64,000 bases of DNA from Nitrospirota bacterium. GTDB taxonomy: Bacteria > Nitrospirota > UBA9217. Of this stretch, positions 47,304 to 63,999 are shown piece after piece (within the stretch, counting starts at the first letter, position 1; each line of letters begins with the position of its first letter). Both the position numbers and the translations under genes were made by a program. The stretch lies in NCBI GenBank assembly GCA_963751455.1, contig CAVVUN010000012.1, positions 256,001 to 320,000 of the forward strand, written 5' to 3'. The notes under the pieces were generated by a model. The model did not search any database. It worked only from the letters and a program-made list of their open reading frames with translations, and had not been told where the DNA came from.

Positions 47304-48405
47304 TTATGATTTGCTCATTTTACCGCCGAATATCTCCACAATTTTATTTACCAAAGCCGGCAGCGAGGGGTCGCGCGCGCCCATGATAAGAATACAGTCT
47401 TCAGGTTTTGCATCGAGTTTTAATCTGGTCAATAAGTCATCGCGGCTGGTGAGCGCTTGTGCATTGAATGCCGCGGGACCAAGGCCGTTTATGATATCTT
47501 CCGAGGAAATATTTTTTTGCGCCGTGCCTCCCGCATAATCCTAAAAACGGCATTTGAACACGGATGAACACGGTAACAGCGGATCAAAACAATGTGATAG
47601 AGCAAAAAGCCATCTCGCCTTTTGGGTGAATCCATTACTGTTCGTAACTTCCTATAAATCCGTGTTGATCAGATTTTATCCGTGTCCAACTGCTTTTTTC
47701 AGGATAATAGATCGGGAGGAGATAGAGTGAATCATTTGGCCGGAACGCGGTTCGAAAAGTTTCGATGTATTCGTCTTTCAAAAACCGTGTAGGGCCGAAG
47801 CCATGCGGCTGATATACGGCCAGGATGCGTCCGGAAAGGCCTCGGGCTGCCCGAACAACAGCCGCTATTTTTGCCGGATTATGGGCAAAGTCATCAACCA
47901 CATGCACGTTCGCTTTTGTTGCGGTGACGGAAAATCGCCGGGCCACACCCTCATAATTTTTTACCGCATGCGCAAGGGCAGACGGCTCACAAGCGAAATA
48001 CTCGCATACGCAGAGCGCAGCGCACAGGTTTTCAAGATTGTGCTCTCCGGGAAGCGGCAGATGATACTCAGTGCCGCTCCTGAATAATTTGACCAAAGTC
48101 GGGAGGAGTTGCTCCCGGTCCGGCCGCCACGAACCCGAACCGTTTCGGCCGAAGCGCACGGTTGCAGGAAGCGAAGCAAGGACCGGATCGTCGGCGTTGG
48201 AGGCCGTCCAGGAAGATTGCGAAGCCAGCGTTTTGAAGAGTTTCGCGATGTCCTCAATGCTTTTGTGGTCCTTGGAAACATTCAGGATGACGGCCGCTTG
48301 CGGACGATATTTGACCACGGTTCCATCGCTTTCGTCCGCCTCCACCACCAGGAGGTCGGACCCGCCGCTATAAGCGTTTCCGATAAGGCCCTCTTTTTCG
48401 AGCCG
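47304..48405 (-). pseudogene. murC: MurC-like (UDP-MurNAc-Ala ligase family) gene, 5'-truncated and MITE-interrupted
   Basis: GLIGNA..LVVEADESDG, DH, VARRF, DDFAHNP, YQPHG, LPIY|YAGGT..MGARDP; N-terminal half absent; frame is restored when 47540-47708 is removed. Confidence 0.85.
47540..47703. mobile_element. 164-bp MITE inside murC
   Basis: 26-bp imperfect TIRs (21/26); 5-bp TSD ATAAT at 47535-47539 and 47704-47708. Confidence 0.88.
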
Positions 48406-48428: not shown

Positions 48429-50564
48429 TCAACCGATTCCTGGAATCCGCAAGGCTCGGTAAACCCAGAGCGCTTCATGAACGAGTACGGCGCTTAACGT
48501 ATGTGAATCAGGTTTCACATCCTTTGGAACGGTGAAAGAGTACTCCATCAATTGATCCTTGCACGGACCGATTTGTTTAAAAACAATGCGATGACTTACT
48601 TTTTCAGTTAGGCGAATCGCAACAACCGGTGAGCTTTTTGTGGACCAGACAGTATCGTTACAATCATTCACTCGCAGACAAACAACTACTTTTGCCCCTG
48701 CTCGGAGTTCGGATGGCCCCTCAAGCGATAGACGATACGCATTTTCAACCCAAAATTCGATCGGTCCGCAGACCTCGCACTCTCGCTGGATAAGGAGATT
48801 GCCGAGAGACAAGAGATGAGTAGCGGTTTCCCTAACAGTATGACCTGGCAAACATTGTGCCTCTGCCAGACAGGAATGTGAATGTAAGCCGGCATCAGCG
48901 ATAGATCGCCATAAAGCACCCCGACCTTCCCCAATAAACAGCATTTCGCAAAACAGAGTAGCCGCCAGTTCGTCCCACTGCCGAAATCCGAACTGAAGCG
49001 GATTGAGAAGTCGGCCGAGCTCGGGGTGCCACAAAAGCGAACGTTGGCAGCTTCGCACTAAATTCAGTCCTGCTTGCGCTGTTTCACTTATTTCACGGCT
49101 GATCTCTGCCATTCCGGCAAGTAACTCCTGACCGCTATTCGAGCCACTCAATTCCTTAGCGTAATGACGACGAACTGCTCGCTCCACTATGTTTGCATAT
49201 CCCGTTCGATCCAAATAGTGTAGCAACATGCTTGCTAATTTCTCCAACTCGTGACCACAGTTTCTTAGTTTAATTTCTCCGGGCTCGGCACTCTCCGTTA
49301 TAATAACGGCGCCGGTCGAGCCTCCTTGAATTACCGTTTGATCTTTAAGGCCTATTGTAGCAGCTAGGGGAGTTCCGGCTAGTTCAGATGGAAGAGCGAA
49401 TAGCTTAACCTTGGTCGATTGTGAATGCCACTTAGCTTCTTTATTGCCTAAGAGTTGTATTGATGGAGCAGGTCCGCAAGCATCGCCGAAAAGGACGTAT
49501 GGTCTTCTGCCTGTTGCACTCTCCTGAAAATCGTTCAGAAGGCATGCTATCTGTCCAAGTCCGACATTGTCCATTGAAAGAGAGTGACCAAGGGTAAGAT
49601 AATATTCGCTCAGTTCTGAGTTGCACCTGGTGGCAAGAAACGCTGCGGGAAAACCTTCGGCTATTGCAATTACGCTGTTTAGATCCGATGGGTAGAGTTC
49701 TCCGCCGAGCGCAAATCCACCGCATGAATGCAGCAGCAGGTTTCGGGCACTTAAATCCCCGAAGCCAATCGAAGTACGCGTACCAGCCGGTGCGCGCTTG
49801 CATTTACGAGTACCCAAGCCACTACAACCGTTAATAGGCCGATTATCAAGTAATCTTTCCGAGCTTATGCCGGCCCCGCAGAGGACAAGATTGCCTAGCT
49901 TAGCATGCCCGAATGTGCCGTGCGCGAAGACACTTAAGACATTCCAACTAGATTCCCGAATCCAGCGTCGAGCCTCATCCTCCATCCAGAGTATTTCATT
50001 GCAGCCGCTGGAAGTCCATCGTGACATTTTTTCTCGATCGAAATCTATCTCAGCTGAGTCAGGCCAATGAGCGTATTTAGCCAAATAGATCTTGGCCAAT
50101 GAAAAACTTAGACCCTCACTGTCAATTGCAGTAATTATACTCCAGGGACGCCGAAAGTGGACTGCCAATTGTTCAACTTGTGCAAAAGGGAAGTCATCGC
50201 GTAAACCTACGAGAACTGCTGAATCCCACACCGCAGCTTCAACTGAAAGCCAATTTTGTACTTTGGCAACGGGACGCTCCAACAACTGGGCATAGAACCT
50301 GACGATGCCGCTTAGTGCATCGTTTATGAAAAAAATCGGATTTCTATCATTTGTTCTCTTTCTTGGAGCGTCTATTTCACCCTTTTCCACCTGTTCTGAA
50401 GCAATATACCATTTTAAAATAGACTCCCAACGTGCAGATCGACCATCTTTCGGTCGCAGCACCATGGGTCCTCTCGCCGTGCCCTTCTTGAGCTGCTCTT
50501 CGAACGCAGTATGTCTTTCAGTCCAAGTAACCTTGTTGCTCATAACTTTGTCTTTAGTCATCAC
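48429..50564 (-). CDS. putative clan CD (caspase/gingipain C25-like) cysteine peptidase-domain protein
   Basis: VLSVFAHG (His), LLLHSC (Cys), YVLFGD resembling gingipain Y.LLGDP; C-terminal CEVC. Confidence 0.6.
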   Translation of the reverse strand: MMTKDKVMSNKVTWTERHTAFEEQLKKGTARGPMVLRPKDGRSARWESILKWYIASEQVEKGEIDAPRKRTNDRNPIFFINDALSGIVRFYAQLLERPVAKVQNWLSVEAAVWDSAVLVGLRDDFPFAQVEQLAVHFRRPWSIITAIDSEGLSFSLAKIYLAKYAHWPDSAEIDFDREKMSRWTSSGCNEILWMEDEARRWIRESSWNVLSVFAHGTFGHAKLGNLVLCGAGISSERLLDNRPINGCSGLGTRKCKRAPAGTRTSIGFGDLSARNLLLHSCGGFALGGELYPSDLNSVIAIAEGFPAAFLATRCNSELSEYYLTLGHSLSMDNVGLGQIACLLNDFQESATGRRPYVLFGDACGPAPSIQLLGNKEAKWHSQSTKVKLFALPSELAGTPLAATIGLKDQTVIQGGSTGAVIITESAEPGEIKLRNCGHELEKLASMLLHYLDRTGYANIVERAVRRHYAKELSGSNSGQELLAGMAEISREISETAQAGLNLVRSCQRSLLWHPELGRLLNPLQFGFRQWDELAATLFCEMLFIGEGRGALWRSIADAGLHSHSCLAEAQCLPGHTVRETATHLLSLGNLLIQRECEVCGPIEFWVENAYRLSLEGPSELRAGAKVVVCLRVNDCNDTVWSTKSSPVVAIRLTEKVSHRIVFKQIGPCKDQLMEYSFTVPKDVKPDSHTLSAVLVHEALWVYRALRIPGIG

Positions 50565-51520: not shown

Positions 51521-53032
51521 TTAAATGCAGTAGGTTCTTAGTTCATCGAGAGCACGACGAGCTTCAATCCGATCATCGAAAGCGAAACGCCGGCCGCTCA
51601 CGAGCTGATAAGTTTCATGTCCCTTGCCGGCAATTAAAACCACCCCTTTTGATCCGGCCCGCATGATTCCCATCCGAATAGCAGCAGCGCGGTCAGTCTC
51701 AACTTCATACTTAAGATTGAGTTGAGACGTTGCTGATAGGTTTGCTTCACTCACTCCGGATAAAATTTCCTCTATTATTGCCCGGGGATCCTCGCACCTT
51801 GGATTATCAGATGTAATAATTACGTGATCGCTAAGATTACATGCGATTGCACCCATCAACGGTCGCTTACTGCGATCGCAGTCGCCTCCGCACCCAAAGA
51901 CGGTCACTAGTTTGCTATTTCCGGATAATGCCCGCAAGGAACCGCATACGTTTTCAAGTGCATCAGGCGTATGGGCATAATCAATAAAAACTCGCGGACC
52001 ATTGACTCCCTGCACCAGTACTCGTTCGAGCCTGCCTGGCACACCATGAAAAGTCGCTATGGCCTCCGCGGACGAATTTAGATCAACACCGAGAGCAAGT
52101 GTTGCGCTGACAGCTGCCATAATATTGTAAACGTTGTAAATGCCGGTCATAGGCGAGACGATGTGAACACTATTAAACCCTTCCGCATCAAGCTGGAACT
52201 TCAACTGCTCTAACGTCATCCCAAGTTTTGACGCCCTTATTGTGGCCCGCCTCTCAATTCCGTACGTCATGAAACGCGAGCTGACCCGCTCAACTAAATG
52301 CCGGCCCCAGAGATCATCTATGTTAATCACCGCCAAAGCTTTAGTCGGAAGCATTTGGAACAACCGTGCCTTTGCCTCGAAATAGGCATCCATGGTGCCG
52401 TGATAATTCAAGTGATCTCGAGTTAAATTTGTAAAAATACCGATTCCGAAGTGAAGGCCATCCACACGATGCTGGCAAAGTGAGTGGGAGGATACTTCAA
52501 TTGCCGCCGTGTTTTGTCCCGTAACACGCATAGCCTCCAGGCATGCATGAATCTCTATGGCTTCGGGAGTAGTGATGCCGCCGTAGAAGGTTTGATTTCC
52601 GACAACCCAATCAACGCTGCCGATCATGCCGCAGCCACGATTGACATGGTTGAGAATATGCCGAATAAGATAACCCGTTGTAGTTTTGCCATTAGTTCCG
52701 GTAATGCCGACAATATCCATCATTAAACTGGGATGGTTATAATAGGCTGAACAGAGGTGTCCAAGTGCTTGACGTGGATTGTTAGCGATAATATGGGGGA
52801 GTTTTGGAGAAAATCGTTTTTTCGCTAAAATTGCGACAGCTCCGTTCCTCACCGCTTGGGATATGGCTGCTAAATAATTTTTATTGTTTTCGTCAGTCGC
52901 AGTGAAAATGAAACCCGGTTCCACGCTACGGGAGTCCAGAGCTATACCGAGAATATCAACATTTGCCGAATTAGTGATGGTAATGTCTGGATAGGACGCG
53001 CTTAGGCGATTAATGAGCGTGTTGAAATTCAT
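51521..53032 (-). CDS. murE: MurE-family amino acid ligase (cluster-borne paralog)
   Basis: GITGTNGKTT, TTPE, EVSSH, FTNLTRDHL, DYAHTPD, GCGGD, SDNPR, IAGKGHE. Confidence 0.88.
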   Translation of the reverse strand: MNFNTLINRLSASYPDITITNSANVDILGIALDSRSVEPGFIFTATDENNKNYLAAISQAVRNGAVAILAKKRFSPKLPHIIANNPRQALGHLCSAYYNHPSLMMDIVGITGTNGKTTTGYLIRHILNHVNRGCGMIGSVDWVVGNQTFYGGITTPEAIEIHACLEAMRVTGQNTAAIEVSSHSLCQHRVDGLHFGIGIFTNLTRDHLNYHGTMDAYFEAKARLFQMLPTKALAVINIDDLWGRHLVERVSSRFMTYGIERRATIRASKLGMTLEQLKFQLDAEGFNSVHIVSPMTGIYNVYNIMAAVSATLALGVDLNSSAEAIATFHGVPGRLERVLVQGVNGPRVFIDYAHTPDALENVCGSLRALSGNSKLVTVFGCGGDCDRSKRPLMGAIACNLSDHVIITSDNPRCEDPRAIIEEILSGVSEANLSATSQLNLKYEVETDRAAAIRMGIMRAGSKGVVLIAGKGHETYQLVSGRRFAFDDRIEARRALDELRTYCI

Positions 53033-53292: not shown

Positions 53293-53505
53293 CTACCAGT
53301 TCATGATACCGCCACCCCGCACGAAACCTGCACGAGCCAAATCAGCACGAATATTCGCCAGTTTGGCTTTTGCTTCTTGAACTTTCGCCTTAGCTTCATG
53401 GAACTGAGCCAAGGCCTGAAAGTCCTTGGAAACTAAATTTTTGTGCTCCGTTCGGAGGCGGAGCTCCACAATACCACTGGTACTCACTTTCTTCTTTTCT
53501 GCCAT
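53293..53505 (-). CDS. putative RiPP precursor/scaffold peptide 2 (70 aa, ends GIMNW)
   Basis: AAGGAGG RBS; paralog of 53607-53810. Confidence 0.75.
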   Translation of the reverse strand: MAEKKKVSTSGIVELRLRTEHKNLVSKDFQALAQFHEAKAKVQEAKAKLANIRADLARAGFVRGGGIMNW

Positions 53506-53606: not shown

Positions 53607-53810
53607 TTACCAGTTATCCGATACGTCGCCAAGCACTAAACCCGCACGAGCCAAGTCAGCACGAATATGCGCCAATTTGGCTTTTGCTTCTTGAACTTTC
53701 ACTTTAGCTTCATGGAACTGAGCCAAAGCCTGAAAGTCCTTGGAAACTAATTTTCTGTGCTCCGTACGAAGCTCCTCGATACCGCGAATACCTAATTTCT
53801 TTTCAGCCAT
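53607..53810 (-). CDS. putative RiPP precursor/scaffold peptide 1 (67 aa, ends VSDNW)
   Basis: AAGGAGG RBS; shares RTEH..LVSKDFQALAQFHEAK.KVQEAKAKLA.IRADLARAG with its paralog. Confidence 0.75.
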   Translation of the reverse strand: MAEKKLGIRGIEELRTEHRKLVSKDFQALAQFHEAKVKVQEAKAKLAHIRADLARAGLVLGDVSDNW

Positions 53811-53869: not shown

Positions 53870-55390
53870 CTATATATGATTACTAAATCGATTTGAATCG
53901 TTCAAAACAAAGTTCTTATGACCAACAGCCGCAGCTGAGGCGCCTGCCATCCTCCCAAAAAAAGCGCCAGATAACAGACCAGTTCCGGCTAAATAGTTAT
54001 GATTGAAAAGGCCTCCCACCATTTCTCCGCAAGCGAAAAGGCCGGAGATAGGTTTCTGATTTGAATCAAGCACCTGAGCCATCTCATTTATTTTTACACC
54101 TCCATAAGTAAAAGTGATACCACCAGTAACGGGATATGCAAAAAAAGGCGGATCCTCAAGCCGGCGCGCCCAATTAGATTTAGGTGGTTGAATACCCGCA
54201 GCCGTCAAACCATCCAATTGGGTCGGGTCGAACTCACCTTGGCGCTGAGCCCCGTTATATTGCTTAAGCACTTCACATGCCCTAGCTTGATTTATTGGCA
54301 ACATCTTAACGAGGGATCCCAAGGAATCAGCGAGGATTGGTTTCCCGGTCTTATAGCGTTTCTCCAGCAGCGGCACGGCATTCGCGTCAAATATCTGGTA
54401 GGCTATGCCATTGGGCTGGCTTAGGATGATTCGACCCATCTTTGCATACGTGAAAAACTGAAAGTCTTCTCCTTCGTCACAAAAGCGCTGGCCGAGGCGA
54501 TTCAGCATCACTCCAAAAGGATAGGAAAGCCGGTTGGACTTATCAGTCAATGAACGGGAGCCGAAAAATGAAGTGCCCGCGTCAATGGGTGTAGAATGAC
54601 AGTGCGTGAAATTACCGTATCGAAGCGCGTTTAAGTCAAAAGCCATGCGCAAACCATCTCCGGTATTATAGGCAGTGCCTCGAACTCTCGCTTGAGCCCA
54701 TTGCCTACCCAAATAGTGCGCACGCCAAGCAGCATTAGACTCAAACCCCCCACAGGCCAGTATAATAGCTTTAGCGGTTAATTGAGAATATCCTTTCGGG
54801 CTCCGGGCAAGAACACCCGTAACCCTCGACCGATTATCCCGGGTTAGCGATACTGCAGCTGTTTGATATAGCACCTCTATTCCTCGTTCAGCAGCAATGT
54901 TGAACCACATTCGTGATAGTCCTACGCCTCCATCGCGTACCTGAACCAAAGCTCCAGGCGACCATCCCACCTTATTTTTGTGGCAAATAGCGCTCAAGGA
55001 TACGGCCAATTCCATAGCTATGCCTTGGTTTACCAACCAGCGGACTGTGTCATAAGAGTGATTGACCAACAGCATGCTCAAATGTAAATCGATTTGACGA
55101 TGAGTAAGGCGCTGTAGATCCTCCCAAAATTGTTGAGCTGTATAAGATGTTATCTCCTCGAAAAAGCCAGGAACTTGACGTTCGGCATCAGGTAACAGTG
55201 GCCGTAGATCGTTTCTCGAATCGAAGGCGAAACGCAATAGCCCTCCGCTGAAGTAAGTATTTCCACCACGAAAATGTTCAGGTGCTTTCTCGAGAACAAT
55301 AACTCGCTTCGCGCCATTTTCGTGGGCGGATACGGCGGCAGCCATAGCGGCGTTCCCAGCGCCAACGATTATTACGTCAAAATCAGACAT
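53870..55390 (-). CDS. FAD-dependent oxidoreductase, TcuA/CobZ-like
   Basis: VGAGNAA, EKAP..RGGN, ACGGFE, NTGDG, GITFTYGGV, CGEMVGG. Confidence 0.85.
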   Translation of the reverse strand: MSDFDVIIVGAGNAAMAAAVSAHENGAKRVIVLEKAPEHFRGGNTYFSGGLLRFAFDSRNDLRPLLPDAERQVPGFFEEITSYTAQQFWEDLQRLTHRQIDLHLSMLLVNHSYDTVRWLVNQGIAMELAVSLSAICHKNKVGWSPGALVQVRDGGVGLSRMWFNIAAERGIEVLYQTAAVSLTRDNRSRVTGVLARSPKGYSQLTAKAIILACGGFESNAAWRAHYLGRQWAQARVRGTAYNTGDGLRMAFDLNALRYGNFTHCHSTPIDAGTSFFGSRSLTDKSNRLSYPFGVMLNRLGQRFCDEGEDFQFFTYAKMGRIILSQPNGIAYQIFDANAVPLLEKRYKTGKPILADSLGSLVKMLPINQARACEVLKQYNGAQRQGEFDPTQLDGLTAAGIQPPKSNWARRLEDPPFFAYPVTGGITFTYGGVKINEMAQVLDSNQKPISGLFACGEMVGGLFNHNYLAGTGLLSGAFFGRMAGASAAAVGHKNFVLNDSNRFSNHI

Positions 55391-57292: not shown

Positions 57293-58318
57293 TCAAAATT
57301 CCAGAGAGTTTGGCTTAATATTCTGACAAGATGGTACGCTTACCGTGAGGTCATTGAAAAAATTGAAACCCAGCGCCCTGCATGCCGAACAAAAATATTG
57401 ATCGTCACAATTTCCACATTTTCCTTGATATTTTCCAGGCGTTTGTTTTCGTAGAAGTGCCAAAAGTTCAGATGACCAAATTTTTTTCAAATCGTCATTA
57501 ACAAGATTTCCCAAGGCGGATGCCAAAACAGGTTTAAAATGCTCGCAAGGTCGAACTGTGCCATCAGGGGATATTGATAATTTGAACCTACCCGCAGAAC
57601 AAAGCTTCAGATGATCATTTTCCGGACTGCGACTGCAACTGCTGTATCGTAATGGTAACTTGCTAACTGTTGTCTTCGCGCGTTGCCACAAAGCGAATGC
57701 CGCCGACTCATCTTGTGCAAATATATGCTGTCCAAATTTAAACGGTACATAATATTGCATGATAACTCCGCGCAGTCGGTCTGGCAAAGCAGATATAAAC
57801 TCGGCTGGTTCAGGGCATCCTGCTAAAAGTGACCAGACAACCATCACATTAAGACCAGCATCCATTGCATGTATCATAGCCGAGCAAGTCTCATCGAAGC
57901 TGCCTGCCCGCGTTTGCTTGTCGTGGTAAACGCGGTTGCCAAATAATTCAAATATAATATTTCCAACGCCGGTTTTTCCCAATTTAAACCAAAAATCCGC
58001 TTCAGGCATTGGGCCACCTGTAATAAGGTCGCAATCGAGGTCATCTTTAGTTGACTCCTCCAGTATCTCTGGGAGCCACGGGAAAGCATTACAGCCCGGT
58101 GCGATAAATAACACATGCCGAATATTGTGCTCCGACAGAACCAGTAAAACCTTTCGTATGATTCTTTGCTGTTCTTTTGGCTCATAACCTTGGAAAAAGT
58201 AGGGGCAATGTTTGCATTCAAACGCACATTTCCAAGCGAGCTGGATATGGGCCTCAATTGCAACGCTCGGTAGTATGGATAAAAAATCTTTAATCCTCTG
58301 ATCGACTTGTTGATTCAT
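57293..58318 (-). CDS. radical SAM/SPASM protein (divergent)
   Basis: CAFECKHC; CSAG..PDG.V.PC; CGNC..CSACRA; ATGA overlap with the upstream gene. Confidence 0.85.
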   Translation of the reverse strand: MNQQVDQRIKDFLSILPSVAIEAHIQLAWKCAFECKHCPYFFQGYEPKEQQRIIRKVLLVLSEHNIRHVLFIAPGCNAFPWLPEILEESTKDDLDCDLITGGPMPEADFWFKLGKTGVGNIIFELFGNRVYHDKQTRAGSFDETCSAMIHAMDAGLNVMVVWSLLAGCPEPAEFISALPDRLRGVIMQYYVPFKFGQHIFAQDESAAFALWQRAKTTVSKLPLRYSSCSRSPENDHLKLCSAGRFKLSISPDGTVRPCEHFKPVLASALGNLVNDDLKKIWSSELLALLRKQTPGKYQGKCGNCDDQYFCSACRALGFNFFNDLTVSVPSCQNIKPNSLEF

Positions 58319-59304
58319 TTTATCAACCAGCAATAAGGGTCGGGCGCGTATAAATCTCCTGAACTAATGTAAGCCATGGCACGACATCCGCCACCGCATT
58401 GCATAAAGCTGCTGCAATTGCAGCAACGTGGATCGATTCCATCTCTAGCCCTCAGAGCATCCATAACTGGATGCCGCGACAAGATATCATCTATATGGTT
58501 AGATGCCAGTGTACCCAGCGTCAAGGGGAAAACCGGGCATGGATAAGCATGTCCTTGAGCTGTATAATGCAACATATAACCTGCTCCGCACTGAGCTCGT
58601 TCGTCGATGGATCTTTCTGCGAAAAGAGCTGCACAGTGTGGCAGCTCCAAGTGAATACCTATATGAAAAGTAGAAATCTTTTTGATATCTAAAATAAAAC
58701 GCTTTAATGATTCTCCGGACAAAATAGGACCAGACAGGCCGGCTTGTCTGCCCAGAGGCATAAGTGGGAATAGGATTAAGGTGTTGACACCCAGTTCATC
58801 TAGCATGTGAATCATTTGCTGGATATCACTTTGATTATGGCGAGAAACGGCTGTTTGAACAGCCACTCTGACGCCTTTTCTAACAAGGCGCTCGATCGCA
58901 GACCAGGCTTTAATGAACGTGCCCGGGCCTCTCACAGCCTCATGAGCCTTGGATAGCCCGTCCAACGAGACCTTAATACCATAAATATTCATAGAAATGA
59001 GTTGCTCGATTCGTTCATCTGAAAGGAGAATTCCATTGGTTGTTAAACCCCAGAACATTTGCTTACGAGTTGCATAAGTGCCGAACGACTTGACTATATT
59101 CCACTCAAGTAGCGGCTCTCCACCGGTCAAGTCGAGAATAGGTGTGCGTTCACCCATCTGGTTAAAAAGTTCTGCTACCATCAATTCTGACCAAGAGGAA
59201 GTCGAACTCGCAGAGCTGTCGACGGCGCAATGGGTACACGAAAGATTGCATCGTGCAGTTATTTGAACGCTAATGGAAGTAAGGGGCGCTGATTCGAATG
59301 CCAT
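58315..59304 (-). CDS. radical SAM/SPASM enzyme
   Basis: AGGAG RBS before MAFESA; CNLSCTHC, TGGEP, TTNG, SLDG; CGAG..PC; CCNC..CGGGCRA..DPYC. Confidence 0.9.
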   Translation of the reverse strand: MAFESAPLTSISVQITARCNLSCTHCAVDSSASSTSSWSELMVAELFNQMGERTPILDLTGGEPLLEWNIVKSFGTYATRKQMFWGLTTNGILLSDERIEQLISMNIYGIKVSLDGLSKAHEAVRGPGTFIKAWSAIERLVRKGVRVAVQTAVSRHNQSDIQQMIHMLDELGVNTLILFPLMPLGRQAGLSGPILSGESLKRFILDIKKISTFHIGIHLELPHCAALFAERSIDERAQCGAGYMLHYTAQGHAYPCPVFPLTLGTLASNHIDDILSRHPVMDALRARDGIDPRCCNCSSFMQCGGGCRAMAYISSGDLYAPDPYCWLIK

Positions 59305-59389
59305 TGTCGGAGAACTCCTGTAATGCTGCGATGAATTTGGGGGATAACCAACTATTGGGTATCCCCCATGTGGTAATGCAGCTAGCGTT

Positions 59390-59464
59390 TTAGAGACAAT
59401 GGGCAATGTTGACCATACAACCCGCAAATCGAACTTTTTTCAACTTAAGCTTAAATTTGCGCAT
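59390..59464 (-). CDS. putative 24-aa RiPP precursor MRKFKLKLKKVRFAGCMVNIAHCL (not in ORF track)
   Basis: AAAGGAGG RBS just upstream of ATG 59464; TAA at 59390-59392; followed by hairpin 59339-59367; flanked by rSAM genes. Confidence 0.7.
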   Translation of the reverse strand: MRKFKLKLKKVRFAGCMVNIAHCL

Positions 59465-59494: not shown

Positions 59495-60319
59495 CTAAAG
59501 AGGCCCTGGGCATAATTTATCCCTGCCTGTGCGTCTTCTGCGGGCTCGGCATCCCCCGCCACAATCCTTAATAGCACACTTTAAACATTCATCGGGAACC
59601 CGAGACCAGGTGAGAAGCCTCTCATCATTCCAAATTTCGCTCAAGCTTTTGTTGTCTAAGGAGCCCAGGCAAAGGCGTGAGCGTCGACATGGACGAACTT
59701 CAGCCTGCTCCGAAACAAACAGGGCAAATCGACCAGCTGGGCATTTACTTCCGACATTTACAAAATCAGGGAAAAAACGCTGCATTAATACCAGATCTGA
59801 TATGACAGGTATCGAGCAATTGTCGGAAAATTCAGATACTGCATAAAGAAATTGTCGGTAAGTATCAACCGAAGCGTGTGGAAGCTCCTCGATGTTCACG
59901 GCTGCCACAGATCTTGCTGACAGCCATTCGATCCAAACCTCTTGATTCGCCTTAGGAGGCAAGTAACCAACAATGACAATACTAAAGCCAAAATCCAGGA
60001 GCATGGCGATTTTTTCCTTGAGACTTTTATCGGGCGAAAGACTTGTATCAACGCTGACTCGCAATGTACATGGAGCAAGCCGGCGCCAGGATGGACGAGG
60101 TTGCAAATCCTCGTATGCGAGGGTCAACACAAGTTCATAACCATGTATTACACTTAAATCCAAAGCCGTTTCAATTGGACCCTTGCATACCATGTTAATA
60201 ATGGAAATTCCTCCAGCAAGTATCATTGACAAGCGTTCGGTCCACAGCGTGTGGTCGGGCTGCAAAGGCAAATCTACCTCGGCAATCATAGGCGCTATCA
60301 GGCGTTCGCTTTCGGACAT
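59495..60319 (-). CDS. SPASM-domain protein lacking the radical SAM CxxxCxxC motif
   Basis: CPAG..VRPC..LGS..SLSEIW..CLKC..CGGGCRA..C present; no N-terminal Cys triad. Confidence 0.78.
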   Translation of the reverse strand: MSESERLIAPMIAEVDLPLQPDHTLWTERLSMILAGGISIINMVCKGPIETALDLSVIHGYELVLTLAYEDLQPRPSWRRLAPCTLRVSVDTSLSPDKSLKEKIAMLLDFGFSIVIVGYLPPKANQEVWIEWLSARSVAAVNIEELPHASVDTYRQFLYAVSEFSDNCSIPVISDLVLMQRFFPDFVNVGSKCPAGRFALFVSEQAEVRPCRRSRLCLGSLDNKSLSEIWNDERLLTWSRVPDECLKCAIKDCGGGCRARRRRTGRDKLCPGPL

Positions 60320-61269
60320 AAAGGATCGTTACCCCAAATTTCCTTTGTGGCGCTGTAGGCTGCTGCTCGGCAACCTCTGCATATCGTGCAAAAATCGCAA
60401 GTATAGCACTTGGCTTCAGATGGAACGGTGCGCAGCGATGCCATTAATTCAGAAGTTTGCCATGCGGCGGTAAATCCTACATCGAAAACATTACGATCAG
60501 AAATACGCAGTTTCGCACAGGGTAGCATAGAGCCATCACTGGAGATTACAACCGCCCATCTGCCGGCGGAACAGCCACTCCAGATATCGTTGGGAATATC
60601 TTTGATATATTTTTTTGGAGTTAATAAATTAAGCAAAGGTTCTTCACAAGATAAATTCTCATGCGATTGCATCCATCCCGAGATCGTCTTCAAGACATGA
60701 TCATACTCGACTACTCCGAGAGAAAAATCATAATCAAGCTTGCCGGGTAAGGCGCAAATTCTCTGGAAACCTGCAGGAACTCCAAGACGAACGAACAGAT
60801 TTAAGAATTTGTCTATTTTAGCGATATTTCGCGACGAAAGTGTCACGAGAAAAGTAATTGGAAGGCCTGCATCTCGCAAGCGCAAGACTTGTTCACACAC
60901 TGCTTGCGCCCTTTCATCCTCTGTTGGAAGAGCATGAAGACTGAGTTGAATAAAAGAAATTTTGTTGTGAAGACGGCTAAAGAAATTTTCAGGAATTCGG
61001 AGTCCATTTGTCAAAAGACCTGGTCGCCAGCCAAACTGATTAGCTTTCCCGACCAGTTCCTCAATATGCGGATATTGCAAACACTCGCCCCCTGTAAAAA
61101 CGATTCGCTCTACTCCCGCCTTTTTAGCCTCAGCCAGAAGTTGAGTGCCTTCAAACAGCGGCATATCTGTAATATGGCGTTCAGAGCCTAAATAACAAAA
61201 GGGGCAATCCAAGTCACATCGTGTAGTTACCTCCAGCTCGAGTAAACTTGGCGCTTGCAAATTCAGCAT
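60298..61269 (-). CDS. radical SAM/SPASM enzyme (PqqE/MftC-like architecture)
   Basis: CDLDCPFC, FTGGE, LTNG; CSAG..PC; CYTC..C..CRGCRA..DPLC. Confidence 0.9.
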   Translation of the reverse strand: MLNLQAPSLLELEVTTRCDLDCPFCYLGSERHITDMPLFEGTQLLAEAKKAGVERIVFTGGECLQYPHIEELVGKANQFGWRPGLLTNGLRIPENFFSRLHNKISFIQLSLHALPTEDERAQAVCEQVLRLRDAGLPITFLVTLSSRNIAKIDKFLNLFVRLGVPAGFQRICALPGKLDYDFSLGVVEYDHVLKTISGWMQSHENLSCEEPLLNLLTPKKYIKDIPNDIWSGCSAGRWAVVISSDGSMLPCAKLRISDRNVFDVGFTAAWQTSELMASLRTVPSEAKCYTCDFCTICRGCRAAAYSATKEIWGNDPLCPKANA

Positions 61270-61671: not shown

Positions 61672-63999
61672 TTACTTACTAAATATAATATTCGAAACAT
61701 CGATAACATCTTCCTTCAACGCAGTGTTAGATAGCAGCTCCCATGATGTGCTCCTTATGGCTGCCTTCAAATCACTCGCAATTGGCTCTATAATGTTTAT
61801 TATATTTGGGTTGGCATGGATGACTATACTCTCAATGCTTCGCCAACTTGGGAGCTGATGAGCCGCCTTCGCCTTATTGACCGCAGAATACACGGCCTGA
61901 GCTACATCAAAACTACTGTTCTTGTCAGGCGGAGAAATCCCCTTGAAATCCGTGTCGTTGGGCCAAGGTGCAATTGAAATACTCTTAATTCCAGTTTCCC
62001 CTGCAAATTCCCAAGACCAAACTTCCTCGCAGATATAGGGAATAAACGGTGCAAACATCTTGATTAATGTTTTAAGACCGAGACGCTGAGCGGCTATAGA
62101 CGACCCTTGATCTTCTGATTTAATACCATCTCCGCCCCATGTTCTCTTTTTGCTTAACTCAAGATAACTATCTGTGAAAGAATGCCAGAAGAAACTTTCA
62201 AGGGTGGAAAGGGCACTGCAGAAATTATATTCGTTTAATTGTTCAGTTACCGTTCGTACAGCTTTTCTGAGATGATCAATGAATGCCCGGTCTAATTCAC
62301 AAGATATGCTGTTTCCAGGTCCCTTTTGTGAAAGCACGAATTTTGAGGCATTATATATTTTTACAACAAGTCGGTTGCCTATTTTTACGATATTCTCATC
62401 ATATGCAGTATCAACTCCAAGTCGCGCATTCCCTGCCCAATAACGGAGGGCATCGGAGGAATACTTTTCAAGAAGATCGGTCGGCACAATAACATTACCT
62501 TTACTCTTGGACATTTTTTTTCTGTCTGGATCAAGAACCCATCCTGAAATGTTAATATTTTTCCAAGGTATTATATTTTCATGCAGCAGAGATTTCACTA
62601 TTGTGTAAAAAGCCCACGTTCTTATAATTTCATGACTTTGTGGCCGCAAATCCATAGGAAATAACTTACTGTGCCGATCTTCGTCTACTAACCATCGAGA
62701 TGCGATTTGAGGAGTCAATGAACTCGTGAACCAGGTATCAAAAACATCGGCTTCTGCAACAAACCCATTTGCTATTCCTCTCTGCCCTTCAGAATAGCCA
62801 GAGGGACAGGTTACTGCCGGGTCAACTGGAAGTTGATCTTCAGCGGCAATTATTGGCTTTGCGTAGTCTGGAATTCCATTATTATCGATAGGATACCATA
62901 CCGGGAAAGGGACGCCGAAATATCTTTGACGGCTGATGCACCAGTCCATATTTAAATTTTGGGTCCAATCCCTATATCTATTAAGCATAAAACTCGGATA
63001 CCAGTTGATTTCCTCCCCCTTTTCCAAAAGTTGTGCTTTCTTATCAAGTAGACGTACGAACCATTGACGTGTTGTTATGTATTCAAGAGGATGATCCCCT
63101 TTCTCGTAGTACCTGACAAAGTGTTTTAATGATCTCTTCGCGATTAAGGGGGGGGCATTTCCGACTGCAGCGCCATTTGGCCGTCTTAACATTTCAGCAA
63201 TTATTTCTCGAGCTTTCCGCACTGGCTTGCCGGCAAGTTCTGAATAAAAAGTATTTGCTAAACTCGGATTTTGACTATGCCAACCCTCATGGCCAAAGCT
63301 GATGTTTGCGAATCTCCCATCTCCTGAAATAATCTGCCTTAAAGGCAGATTTTCTTCACGCCACCATTGAACATCGTTTTGATCTCCGAATGTACAGACC
63401 ATAAGGATGCCGGTGCCTTTTTCAGGATTCACCATTTTACTAGGAAAGCATCGAACTTCTGAAAAAAATAAGGGAGTAATGGCTTTTTCCCCGACTAGGT
63501 GCTTATACCTTGGGTCGTCCGGATGAAATGTAACTCCAACGCAGGCCGGTAGAAGCTCGGGGCGGGTAGTCGATATGGTGAAACCAGCATCTGATTCGGC
63601 TAGACCAAAACGAATATCGTGAAAAACGCCTTCAACTTCTCGATCTTCAACTTCTGCTTGAGCAATTGCAGTTTGAAAGTCAATATCCCACATGGTGGGC
63701 CCTTCCGAACTATACAGGTGGCCCTTTCTCAGTAGGTCCAAAAAACTTACTTGCGCAATAGTTCTACAAAGCTTATCAATGGTTGAGTATTCCTGATGCC
63801 AATCCACAGACAATCCGATTCTTTGCCACAAACTTTTGAATACTTCTTCATCTTCTTTTGTCAGTTTAACGCAAAGATCTAAAAAATTAGATCGTGATAT
63901 AATCTGCGGTTTTTTCTTCCTATCTTCCGAGTCCGCCTGTTTTATGTTCAAATGCTCTTTATACGGCTCATTAGGATCGCATCGGACATGAAAATAATT
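61672..63999 (-). CDS. valS: valyl-tRNA synthetase, type 2 (actinobacterial/archaeal-like); 5' end outside window
   Basis: NYFHVRCDP, TTRPELL, GTGILM.CTFGD, DWCISRQR, DTWFTS, RPQSHEIIRTW, KMSKS; frame open to the window edge. Confidence 0.92.
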   Translation of the reverse strand, partial: NYFHVRCDPNEPYKEHLNIKQADSEDRKKKPQIISRSNFLDLCVKLTKEDEEVFKSLWQRIGLSVDWHQEYSTIDKLCRTIAQVSFLDLLRKGHLYSSEGPTMWDIDFQTAIAQAEVEDREVEGVFHDIRFGLAESDAGFTISTTRPELLPACVGVTFHPDDPRYKHLVGEKAITPLFFSEVRCFPSKMVNPEKGTGILMVCTFGDQNDVQWWREENLPLRQIISGDGRFANISFGHEGWHSQNPSLANTFYSELAGKPVRKAREIIAEMLRRPNGAAVGNAPPLIAKRSLKHFVRYYEKGDHPLEYITTRQWFVRLLDKKAQLLEKGEEINWYPSFMLNRYRDWTQNLNMDWCISRQRYFGVPFPVWYPIDNNGIPDYAKPIIAAEDQLPVDPAVTCPSGYSEGQRGIANGFVAEADVFDTWFTSSLTPQIASRWLVDEDRHSKLFPMDLRPQSHEIIRTWAFYTIVKSLLHENIIPWKNINISGWVLDPDRKKMSKSKGNVIVPTDLLEKYSSDALRYWAGNARLGVDTAYDENIVKIGNRLVVKIYNASKFVLSQKGPGNSISCELDRAFIDHLRKAVRTVTEQLNEYNFCSALSTLESFFWHSFTDSYLELSKKRTWGGDGIKSEDQGSSIAAQRLGLKTLIKMFAPFIPYICEEVWSWEFAGETGIKSISIAPWPNDTDFKGISPPDKNSSFDVAQAVYSAVNKAKAAHQLPSWRSIESIVIHANPNIINIIEPIASDLKAAIRSTSWELLSNTALKEDVIDVSNIIFSK

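Follow-up and report, generated by a model that had tools for sequence, protein, structure and literature searches.

A foreign type-2 valyl-tRNA synthetase gene heads a radical-SAM gene cluster and may act in its self-protection

We found that a complete valyl-tRNA synthetase (ValRS) gene of foreign origin, valS2, lies in a genomic island as the first of a run of genes on the same strand, and that a related cluster, L133, carries a leucyl-tRNA synthetase (LeuRS) in the same slot. Our best reading, a tentative one, is that valS2 is a foreign second copy that may well serve as the self-protection gene of the cluster. Extra synthetases are known from other biosynthetic clusters, such as those of mupirocin (IleRS) and valanimycin (SerRS). 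When a cluster carries an extra synthetase, the target of its product can be predicted from it. The natural swap seen here sharpens that prediction, as the same seven-gene core goes with ValRS in one host and with LeuRS in another. The window is the whole stretch of DNA that was analysed, 64,000 nucleotides of contig C12, and coordinates without the prefix C12 count from its first position.

The product of valS2 belongs to the type-2 (alt_ValS) family, scoring 1062 bits against NCBIfam NF000540 (cut-off 900) and 1012 bits against PRK13208 (cut-off 738), and 478 bits against the type-1 model PRK05729, which is under the cut-off of 704. The gene starts at C12:320317, 317 bp past the window edge, and its last 775 codons are visible in the window. 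Two signatures named in an earlier sequence-only reading, NYFHVRCDP (63973-63999) and PQSHEIIRTW (62614-62643), were both located on the minus strand, and the enzyme also has PPPT, SLHIGH, DWCISRQR and KMSKS and keeps the editing motifs STTRPE and GTG..TFGD. It was likewise correct that a long C-terminal coiled coil is missing: 281 residues follow KMSKS, compared with a median of 276 in 69 type-2 relatives and with 368-374 in four type-1 ValRS of relatives. The description of the enzyme as atypical did not survive the comparison, given this ordinary C-terminus and only 5 departures at the 225 columns conserved among 73 relatives, which is mid-range for the 74 rows (0-22); no resistance-type substitution stood out at these columns. 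Judged by its sequence, the cluster ValRS is an intact and canonical member of the type-2 family, and the differences between type 1 and type 2 could themselves be the source of resistance.

The island is 16.5 kb long and AT-rich, with all genes on the same strand, and lies between two copies of a segment of a host gene (Table 1). The left copy, into which a 169-bp multicopy repeat (47535-47703) is inserted, is identical at 890 of 932 bases to the other copy (C12:320952-321883), and the intact YkuD-MurC-like gene lies outside the window at C12:320952-322871. The length of the duplicated segment suggests that the island came in by recombination from a related donor; no integrase was recognised in the island. 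When the loci of nine relatives were compared as empty sites, one of them had a response regulator, on the gene's other side. As had been read from the letters, valS2 heads the cluster, 635 bp from the bounding host gene, and we measured the same gap of 77 bp between its end at 61672 and the RRE gene. A possible IS256-like remnant upstream of valS2 was set aside, as a Pfam search gave no match.

Table 1. Features of the island, with positions in the window and identity of the L133 orthologues
Feature	Position	Strand	L133 orthologue
Type-2 (alt_ValS) valyl-tRNA synthetase (valS2), 881 aa	61672..64000 (window share of C12:317672-320317)	minus	
Stand-alone RRE / PqqD-like protein, 107 aa	61271..61594	minus	44%
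Radical SAM/SPASM enzyme 1, 323 aa, CxxxCxxC present	60298..61269	minus	38%
SPASM-domain protein without CxxxCxxC, 274 aa	59495..60319	minus	32%, likewise without CxxxCxxC
Radical SAM/SPASM enzyme 3, 370 aa as the longest ORF and 329 aa in the database	58315..59427	minus	50%
Radical SAM/SPASM enzyme 4, 346 aa	57293..58333	minus	36%
Radical SAM/SPASM enzyme 5 fused to metallo-beta-lactamase-fold domain, 564 aa	55470..57164	minus	31% to radical SAM part; unfused, 337 aa
TcuA-like FAD oxidoreductase, 506 aa, NF006130 516 bits (cut-off 369)	53870..55390	minus	
Candidate precursor peptide A1 of 67 aa with C-terminal NW, AGGAGG-type ribosome site	53607..53810	minus	
Candidate precursor peptide A2, 70 aa, variable tail ending NW	53293..53505	minus	
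Second MurE-family ligase, 503 aa, NF001126 509 bits (cut-off 373)	51521..53032	minus	
PP-loop (N-type ATP pyrophosphatase) protein, 312 aa	50554..51492	minus	34%
Predicted C25/caspase-like cysteine peptidase, 711 aa	48429..50564	minus	
Left boundary, copy of last 932 bp of host YkuD-MurC-like gene	47304..48404 (C12:303304-304404)	minus	

Downstream of valS2, the 107-aa protein matched PF05402 at E 0.003, below the cut-off; its AlphaFold model has a pLDDT of 81, and the top rows in Foldseek were the lasso RREs TbiB1 and 6jx3 at E 0.004-0.03, none reaching E<=0.001. The modelled fold and the weak PqqD matches of both orthologues point to an RRE. Five radical-SAM/SPASM genes follow, four with CxxxCxxC and one SPASM-only. 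The nearest families of the SPASM enzymes are peptide and protein maturases. Scores against the named full-length radical-SAM families are all far below the cut-offs (at best 138 bits against 500). The peptides A1 and A2 are 78% identical and differ mainly at their ends, a pattern like that of precursor peptides, and a protein search gave no relative of either outside the source genome. The host murE lies on contig C15. The PP-loop protein scored 55 bits against TIGR03573, under the cut-off of 203; its weak nearest matches are WbuX and GMP synthase, AsnB gave no match, and its cysteines are conserved in the L133 orthologue. The 711-aa protein has an Atlas score of 0.96 to a cluster auto-named C25 family cysteine peptidase and 302 representatives at E<=0.001, with H214 (His-Gly) and C280 conserved. 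It has relatives at 26-28% on Streptomyces plasmids, of which two of six were inspected and lie in unrelated NRPS-type clusters, and a metagenome scan with the C25-like alignment gave no match.

The gene valS2 is foreign and not vertically inherited. The source genome alone among 401 genomes of the phylum passed the alt_ValS cut-off, the next score being 378 bits, and the best match to the cluster ValRS among 40 relatives reached at most 34% identity. The nearest full-length relatives, among the matches listed, are 52-59% identical. In a FastTree of 78 rows, which left out seven of the 80 GTDB loci as shorter than 700 aa, the enzyme sits on an end branch of 0.64 within a group of 21 rows (support 99) made up of enzymes from Myxococcota, Acidobacteriota and Spirochaetota and two labelled Pseudomonadota, and the tree points to no single donor. 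The AT-richness that the sequence-only reading had noticed was confirmed: valS2 has a GC of 0.416 and a GC3 of 0.362, whereas the median GC3 of 1324 long host ORFs is 0.639 and 2.5% of these have a GC3 of 0.40 or less.

Related clusters were sought with the core radical SAM enzymes. The central one, enzyme 3, has seven close relatives at 50-69% identity, and a metagenome scan gave 19 loci, two of them with close relatives; one of these (L133) had sufficient flank and the other lay on a 1.2-kb contig. The 21 kb of L133 that we examined carry orthologues of seven core genes at 31-50% identity, at a GC of 60% compared with 40-49% in the island. In place of ValRS, L133 has a full-length LeuRS on the same strand, ending 76 bp before the RRE gene, with 1023 bits against TIGR00396 (cut-off 548) and with editing motifs and KMSKS present. 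This LeuRS scored 584 bits to 5AH5, which we take to be AgnB2, and 744 bits to 1H3N, so 5AH5 is not its nearest. Homologues of TcuA, MurE, the C25-like protein and A1/A2 were not found in the 21 kb; L133 has in addition a GNAT-fold protein, a radical SAM enzyme resembling RaSEA (193 bits against TIGR01210, cut-off 212) and a divergent MFS transporter, separated from the rest by an IS element.

In these two clusters, the synthetase slot is conserved and the amino acid is swapped, Val in the island and Leu in L133. ValRS and LeuRS are ancient paralogues, and therefore at least one separate recruitment into the slot is needed. By a rough estimate from some 20 synthetase genes in a total of several thousand, chance would put a synthetase in that slot in less than 1% of cases. 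The conserved slot, seen in two clusters, is our main evidence for a place of the synthetase in the pathway. The product link drawn by the sequence-only reading stands as a tie between synthetase and cluster, but not as a valine-specific one, since the slot holds LeuRS in L133 and the tie is to class Ia synthetases. Of a synthetase together with the radical-SAM set there is one example besides the island, the LeuRS in L133, and none with a second ValRS: in GTDB, the best 80 of at least 598 confirmed stretches with a related ValRS, many with short flanks, had no homologue of the RRE, SPASM, PP-loop, C25 or precursor genes. The core radical-SAM profile found no orthologue in 63 other genomes of the class, in three other phylum-level samples (401, 124 and 401 genomes, a search with no positive control), in viral contigs or in plasmids, where four distant matches were inspected and none had a synthetase. 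A further locus, in which a distantly related radical SAM gene has a synthetase close by, was set aside, as it looks like an ordinary ileS-lspA operon.

In the mechanism that we propose, the valS2 enzyme would charge tRNA-Val while the predicted product, either the modified peptide itself or an end piece released from it, would block the ordinary synthetase of the host or be mis-activated by it. The RRE would bind the precursor, likely A1/A2, and hand it to the four radical-SAM enzymes and their SPASM-only partner. The PP-loop ATPase would adenylate a carboxyl group, probably at the peptide end, and then swap AMP for a nucleophile, and the C25-like protein would remove the leader. The product may mimic a branched-chain amino acid or the adenylate of one, resembling Val in the island and Leu in L133, and the cluster synthetase, being of a divergent lineage, would be insensitive to it or edit it out.

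We prefer self-protection because both synthetases look like complete charging enzymes, because no tRNA-dependent transferase was recognised in the island, and because agrocin-84-like clusters offer a precedent for the swap. Both proteins are full length, with editing motifs and KMSKS, which any functional charging enzyme would need, and the GNAT-fold protein and MFS transporter of L133 resemble, by analogy, the immunity and export genes of microcin C clusters, for which PMC8323819 describes an acetyltransferase for immunity and an export pump. The same source describes agrocin-84-like clusters whose synthetase gene, proposed to give immunity, encodes LeuRS in Rhizobiales and MetRS in actinobacteria. 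Several observations weigh against self-protection. No resistance signature was seen: KMSKS is kept in both enzymes and the cluster ValRS is mid-range at the conserved columns; according to PMC5059758, the immunity LeuRS AgnB2 is changed at the Pro before HIGH and has KQSKS, whereas the L133 LeuRS keeps both the Pro and KMSKS. Two clusters have been seen, with context for two of the seven close radical-SAM relatives; no exporter gene was recognised in the island; and the precursor call is provisional because L133 has no A1/A2 homologue in its 21 kb. The ValRS family also travels without such clusters, the island contains other near-housekeeping cargo (the second MurE and the TcuA-like gene), and the host valS may be dead.

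The sequence-only reading had left two branches side by side, inhibition of ValRS by the product or incorporation of valine through its tRNA, and of these the putative self-resistance is the better supported. For the synthetase to be biosynthetic, Val-tRNA or Val-AMP (Leu in L133) would be joined to the modified peptide and the residue would end up in the product, which we consider unlikely. Its position as the first gene of the operon and its tight linkage to the RRE gene in both clusters agree with such a role, as do the Val/Leu swap, which would yield two product variants, the GNAT-fold protein in L133, and the precedent of fosfazinomycin, in which a Val-tRNA-dependent ligation follows modification of the peptide end by an asparagine-synthetase-like enzyme (PMC13622209). 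What incorporation lacks is an acceptor enzyme: LanB/PEARL, FemAB and GNAT families gave no match among the island proteins, and inspection by eye of the ORFs upstream, where the sequence-only reading had proposed searching for such an enzyme, revealed no recognisable tRNA-dependent transferase. Across the genome, Lant_dehydr_N gave no match, with the control silent too, and FemAB gave one weak match on another contig. The PP-loop protein is the sole ligase-like gene common to both clusters, and the full length and editing motifs of both synthetases also speak against a biosynthetic function.

The sequence-only reading had proposed looking for a second, housekeeping valS, and we located a type-1 valS at C3:167.5-170.1 kb, at the ancestral locus, in the same neighbourhood as in a relative (G016), although broken in the assembly. 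Its reading frame switches three times and a deletion of 81 bp (27 codons) covers D-W-C of the DWCISRQ motif, and it is alone among 109 orthologues at >=75% identity in having a deletion of at least 20 residues. If the host gene were dead, the island ValRS would now be the housekeeping enzyme and the island essential, and the link to the cluster would be secondary in this genome; we give this reading a small chance, somewhat below that of a biosynthetic role. It would agree with type-2 enzymes elsewhere, which are the sole ValRS in three of five genomes checked (a second copy in the other two) and in Terracidiphilus precede nadC, the position of the host type-1 valS in the source genome. It would also agree with a perfect sigma-70 consensus (12/12, a pattern match only) at C12:320530-320559, about 210 bp upstream of the valS2 start and the single 12/12 match among 36 sigma-70-like sites in 17 kb; Rfam gave no match at the gathering score, and with it no T-box. 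However, 17 of 261 control orthologues of the assembly have frame switches (a few may be false; another count gave 2 of 123), including valS itself, the sole leuS and cheA, which adjoins valS. We favour an assembly error because patches of indels also hit control genes, among them the essential leuS, and the lesions of the host valS are probably of that kind. Its three long remaining parts share 72-89% identity with their counterparts in L009 and L013, the closest relatives, and the LeuRS in L133 would be left unexplained. One DNA run contained a few 151-base pieces that match the island exactly and no piece at >=95% on the host valS region, which it did not cover. In our judgement true decay of the host gene is doubtful, and replacement and self-protection may both hold. 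As for the refuting case named in the sequence-only reading, valS2 is not a sole, vertically inherited valS, and a synthetase is present in the same slot of the related cluster.

Less probable again is that the synthetases are cargo, the clusters having settled behind a donor housekeeping synthetase with a strong promoter and carried the gene along. The canonical sequence of the cluster ValRS would fit this, as would the further near-housekeeping genes in the island and the fact that there are two examples only. Mobile copies of the family exist on plasmids, where seven records had a related ValRS; of five inspected, three stand alone and two are in enzyme operons, one on a Streptomyces plasmid (radical SAM, arginine-deiminase family, hypothetical, valS, hydrolase, methyltransferase) and one on a Variovorax plasmid (aminotransferases, amidohydrolase, valS). 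This ValRS family is mobile and occurs in further cluster-like operons, as would be expected of an immunity gene and equally of cargo. Cargo would, however, require two independent captures of class Ia synthetases in the same slot, on the same strand and at the same spacing, and each synthetase comes close to its own cluster in codon bias (GC3 of 0.36 for ValRS against 0.39-0.51, and of 0.69 for the L133 LeuRS against 0.63-0.72).

It is improbable that the core modifies the translation system itself, a tRNA or a synthetase, with no small molecule made and A1/A2 not substrates: the missing precursor homologue and the RaSEA-like enzyme in L133 would agree with this, as would the sulfur transferase TtuA ranking first for a low-confidence PP-loop model, but that model is unusable (pLDDT 44, TM about 0.26) and its ranking uninformative, neither the island nor L133 has a tRNA gene, and the stand-alone RRE, the maturase-like SPASM enzymes, the tandem peptides with conserved leaders and the predicted peptidase point to a peptide product.

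Returning to self-protection, a wider form of it is possible but doubtful: an undescribed family of RiPP clusters, built of an RRE, four radical-SAM enzymes, a SPASM-only protein and a PP-loop ATPase, would make synthetase inhibitors with an interchangeable target, each recruiting the matching class Ia synthetase for immunity, and the imported ValRS may have replaced the native valS. If this were true, the cluster would encode a natural ValRS-directed compound. The pair of ValRS and LeuRS clusters can be tested directly for inhibition of Val- versus Leu-tRNA charging.

Several known systems resemble the island in part. Among type-2 or archaeal-type ValRS, the cluster enzyme is ordinary in its scores, motifs and short C-terminus, and it differs from the others in being alone in the phylum sample, on a long branch and at the head of a radical-SAM cluster, a position seen at none of the 80 loci of relatives. 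The self-resistance model is matched by its foreign origin and in-cluster location; the one related cluster with sufficient flank has a synthetase too, a LeuRS and not a second ValRS. Agrocin 84 (AgnB2 LeuRS) and the agn-like MetRS clusters likewise have an extra class I synthetase whose identity varies among related clusters (PMC8323819), but the island annotation holds no Agn-type enzyme set and has an RRE, SPASM enzymes and peptides instead. With microcin C-like systems, some of which have a synthetase or an acetyltransferase for immunity according to the same paper, the island would share the RRE-guided, ATP-dependent activation of a peptide end that we propose; however, it has a PP-loop fold in place of ThiF/MccB (ThiF gave seven matches genome-wide, none in the island), the microcin C-like precursors end in N whereas A1 and A2 end in NW, and five radical-SAM/SPASM genes are present. 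Pearlins share a peptide scaffold, an RRE, radical SAM chemistry and an amino-acid-like product (PMC9303977), but the PEARL ligase is absent from the island and was not found genome-wide, where the control was silent; a synthetase in the tmo (3-thiahomoleucine) cluster, considered as a further parallel, does not appear in the gene list of that paper. By their sequences, then, the island genes fail the defining tests for pearlins (PEARL) and for microcin C (ThiF-family MccB). In the fosfazinomycin pathway, a short ribosomal peptide has its C-terminus modified by FzmA, an ATP-using enzyme, before the Val-tRNA-dependent step (PMC13622209), whereas the PP-loop protein has no AsnB match and the island no phosphonate genes.

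The island also resembles radical-SAM RiPP systems in having an RRE and radical SAM/SPASM maturases; A1/A2 fit the precursor pattern, though with no L133 homologue. PQQ, mycofactocin, GeoRSP and SynChlorMet share the stand-alone RRE and the SPASM enzymes, with a SPASM-only gene as in GeoRSP (weak matches), but the full-length scores are far below the cut-offs and the precursors are unrelated. No description of this gene set was found in the literature searched, which was mostly without subscription journals, and 'ValRS' is absent from the main text of a review of Trojan-horse synthetase inhibitors (PMC8323819). The island carries an ordinary ValRS in an apparently undescribed type of cluster, and the strategy of an extra synthetase is itself already known.

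Single-base indel patches break cheA, valS and the sole leuS of the source genome, and frame switches were found in 17 of its 261 control genes, so that a gene called as a pseudogene here cannot safely be taken for one. The 169-bp repeat in the window gave 52 BLAST matches genome-wide (at least 95% over 150 bp) and looks like a MITE. A YkuD-MurC-like fusion gene, matched in 34 of 38 family relatives, has a duplicated 3′ end; identity between the copies is 97.7% over 701 bp but drops to 88.7% in the final 231 bp, as would fit two ends of different strain origin. Upstream of valS2, the type-2 ValRS gene heading the island, lies a stop-riddled frame that we take to resemble an IS256 transposase end, a likeness unconfirmed by Pfam search.

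Inside the island, the C25-like protein of 711 aa falls into a family that has no name and counts at least 302 representatives. Its relatives on Streptomyces plasmids lie in unrelated clusters, next to NRPS-like and HAD genes, and one Streptomyces plasmid cluster with a family member also carries queuosine-pathway genes. The island MurE, which scores above the family cut-off, is a second copy, the host murE being on another contig (C15), and could be a biosynthetic ligase or a further protective duplicate.

Features of the source genome and of related loci
Feature	Location	Description
Frame-broken genes	G000 C3:162100-170100; C2:141144-143648	cheA, valS, leuS
169-bp repeat	window 47535-47703	ends inverted
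YkuD-MurC-like fusion gene	window 47304-48404; C12:320952-321883	duplicated 3′ end
C25-like protein	window 48429-50564	
Second MurE	window 51521-53032	
Stop-riddled frame	C12:320500-320900	beyond window
RaSEA-like radical SAM gene	L133:13524-14645	193 bits
Terracidiphilus type-2 valS and nadC	L019:3108-8522; L021:9989-13603	
Variovorax sp. SRS16 plasmid operon	L173:7084-15258	aminotransferases, amidohydrolase, type-2 valS, VOC protein
Streptomyces sp. NBC_01724 plasmid operon	L176:5943-14310	radical SAM, arginine-deiminase-family protein, hypothetical, type-2 valS, hydrolase, methyltransferase

The related bacterial cluster with a LeuRS in the ValRS slot (L133) is closed by a RaSEA-like gene, of an archaeosine pathway family, which scores below the cut-off of 212 bits. 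Separately, plasmid clusters in Microbulbifer and Indioceanicola records (L152, L153) combine an NTF2-family gene, three radical SAM genes and a PqqD protein; both lack a synthetase, and they have no relation to the ValRS-island finding.

In Terracidiphilus, type-2 valS precedes nadC, followed in L019 by birA and type III pantothenate kinase, and in the lineage of the window this slot belongs to type-1 valS; an in-place replacement is likely. Type-2 valS also occurs in plasmid operons, of which that of Variovorax adjoins a branched-chain amino acid ABC transporter, and that of Streptomyces is a candidate for a further ValRS-linked cluster.
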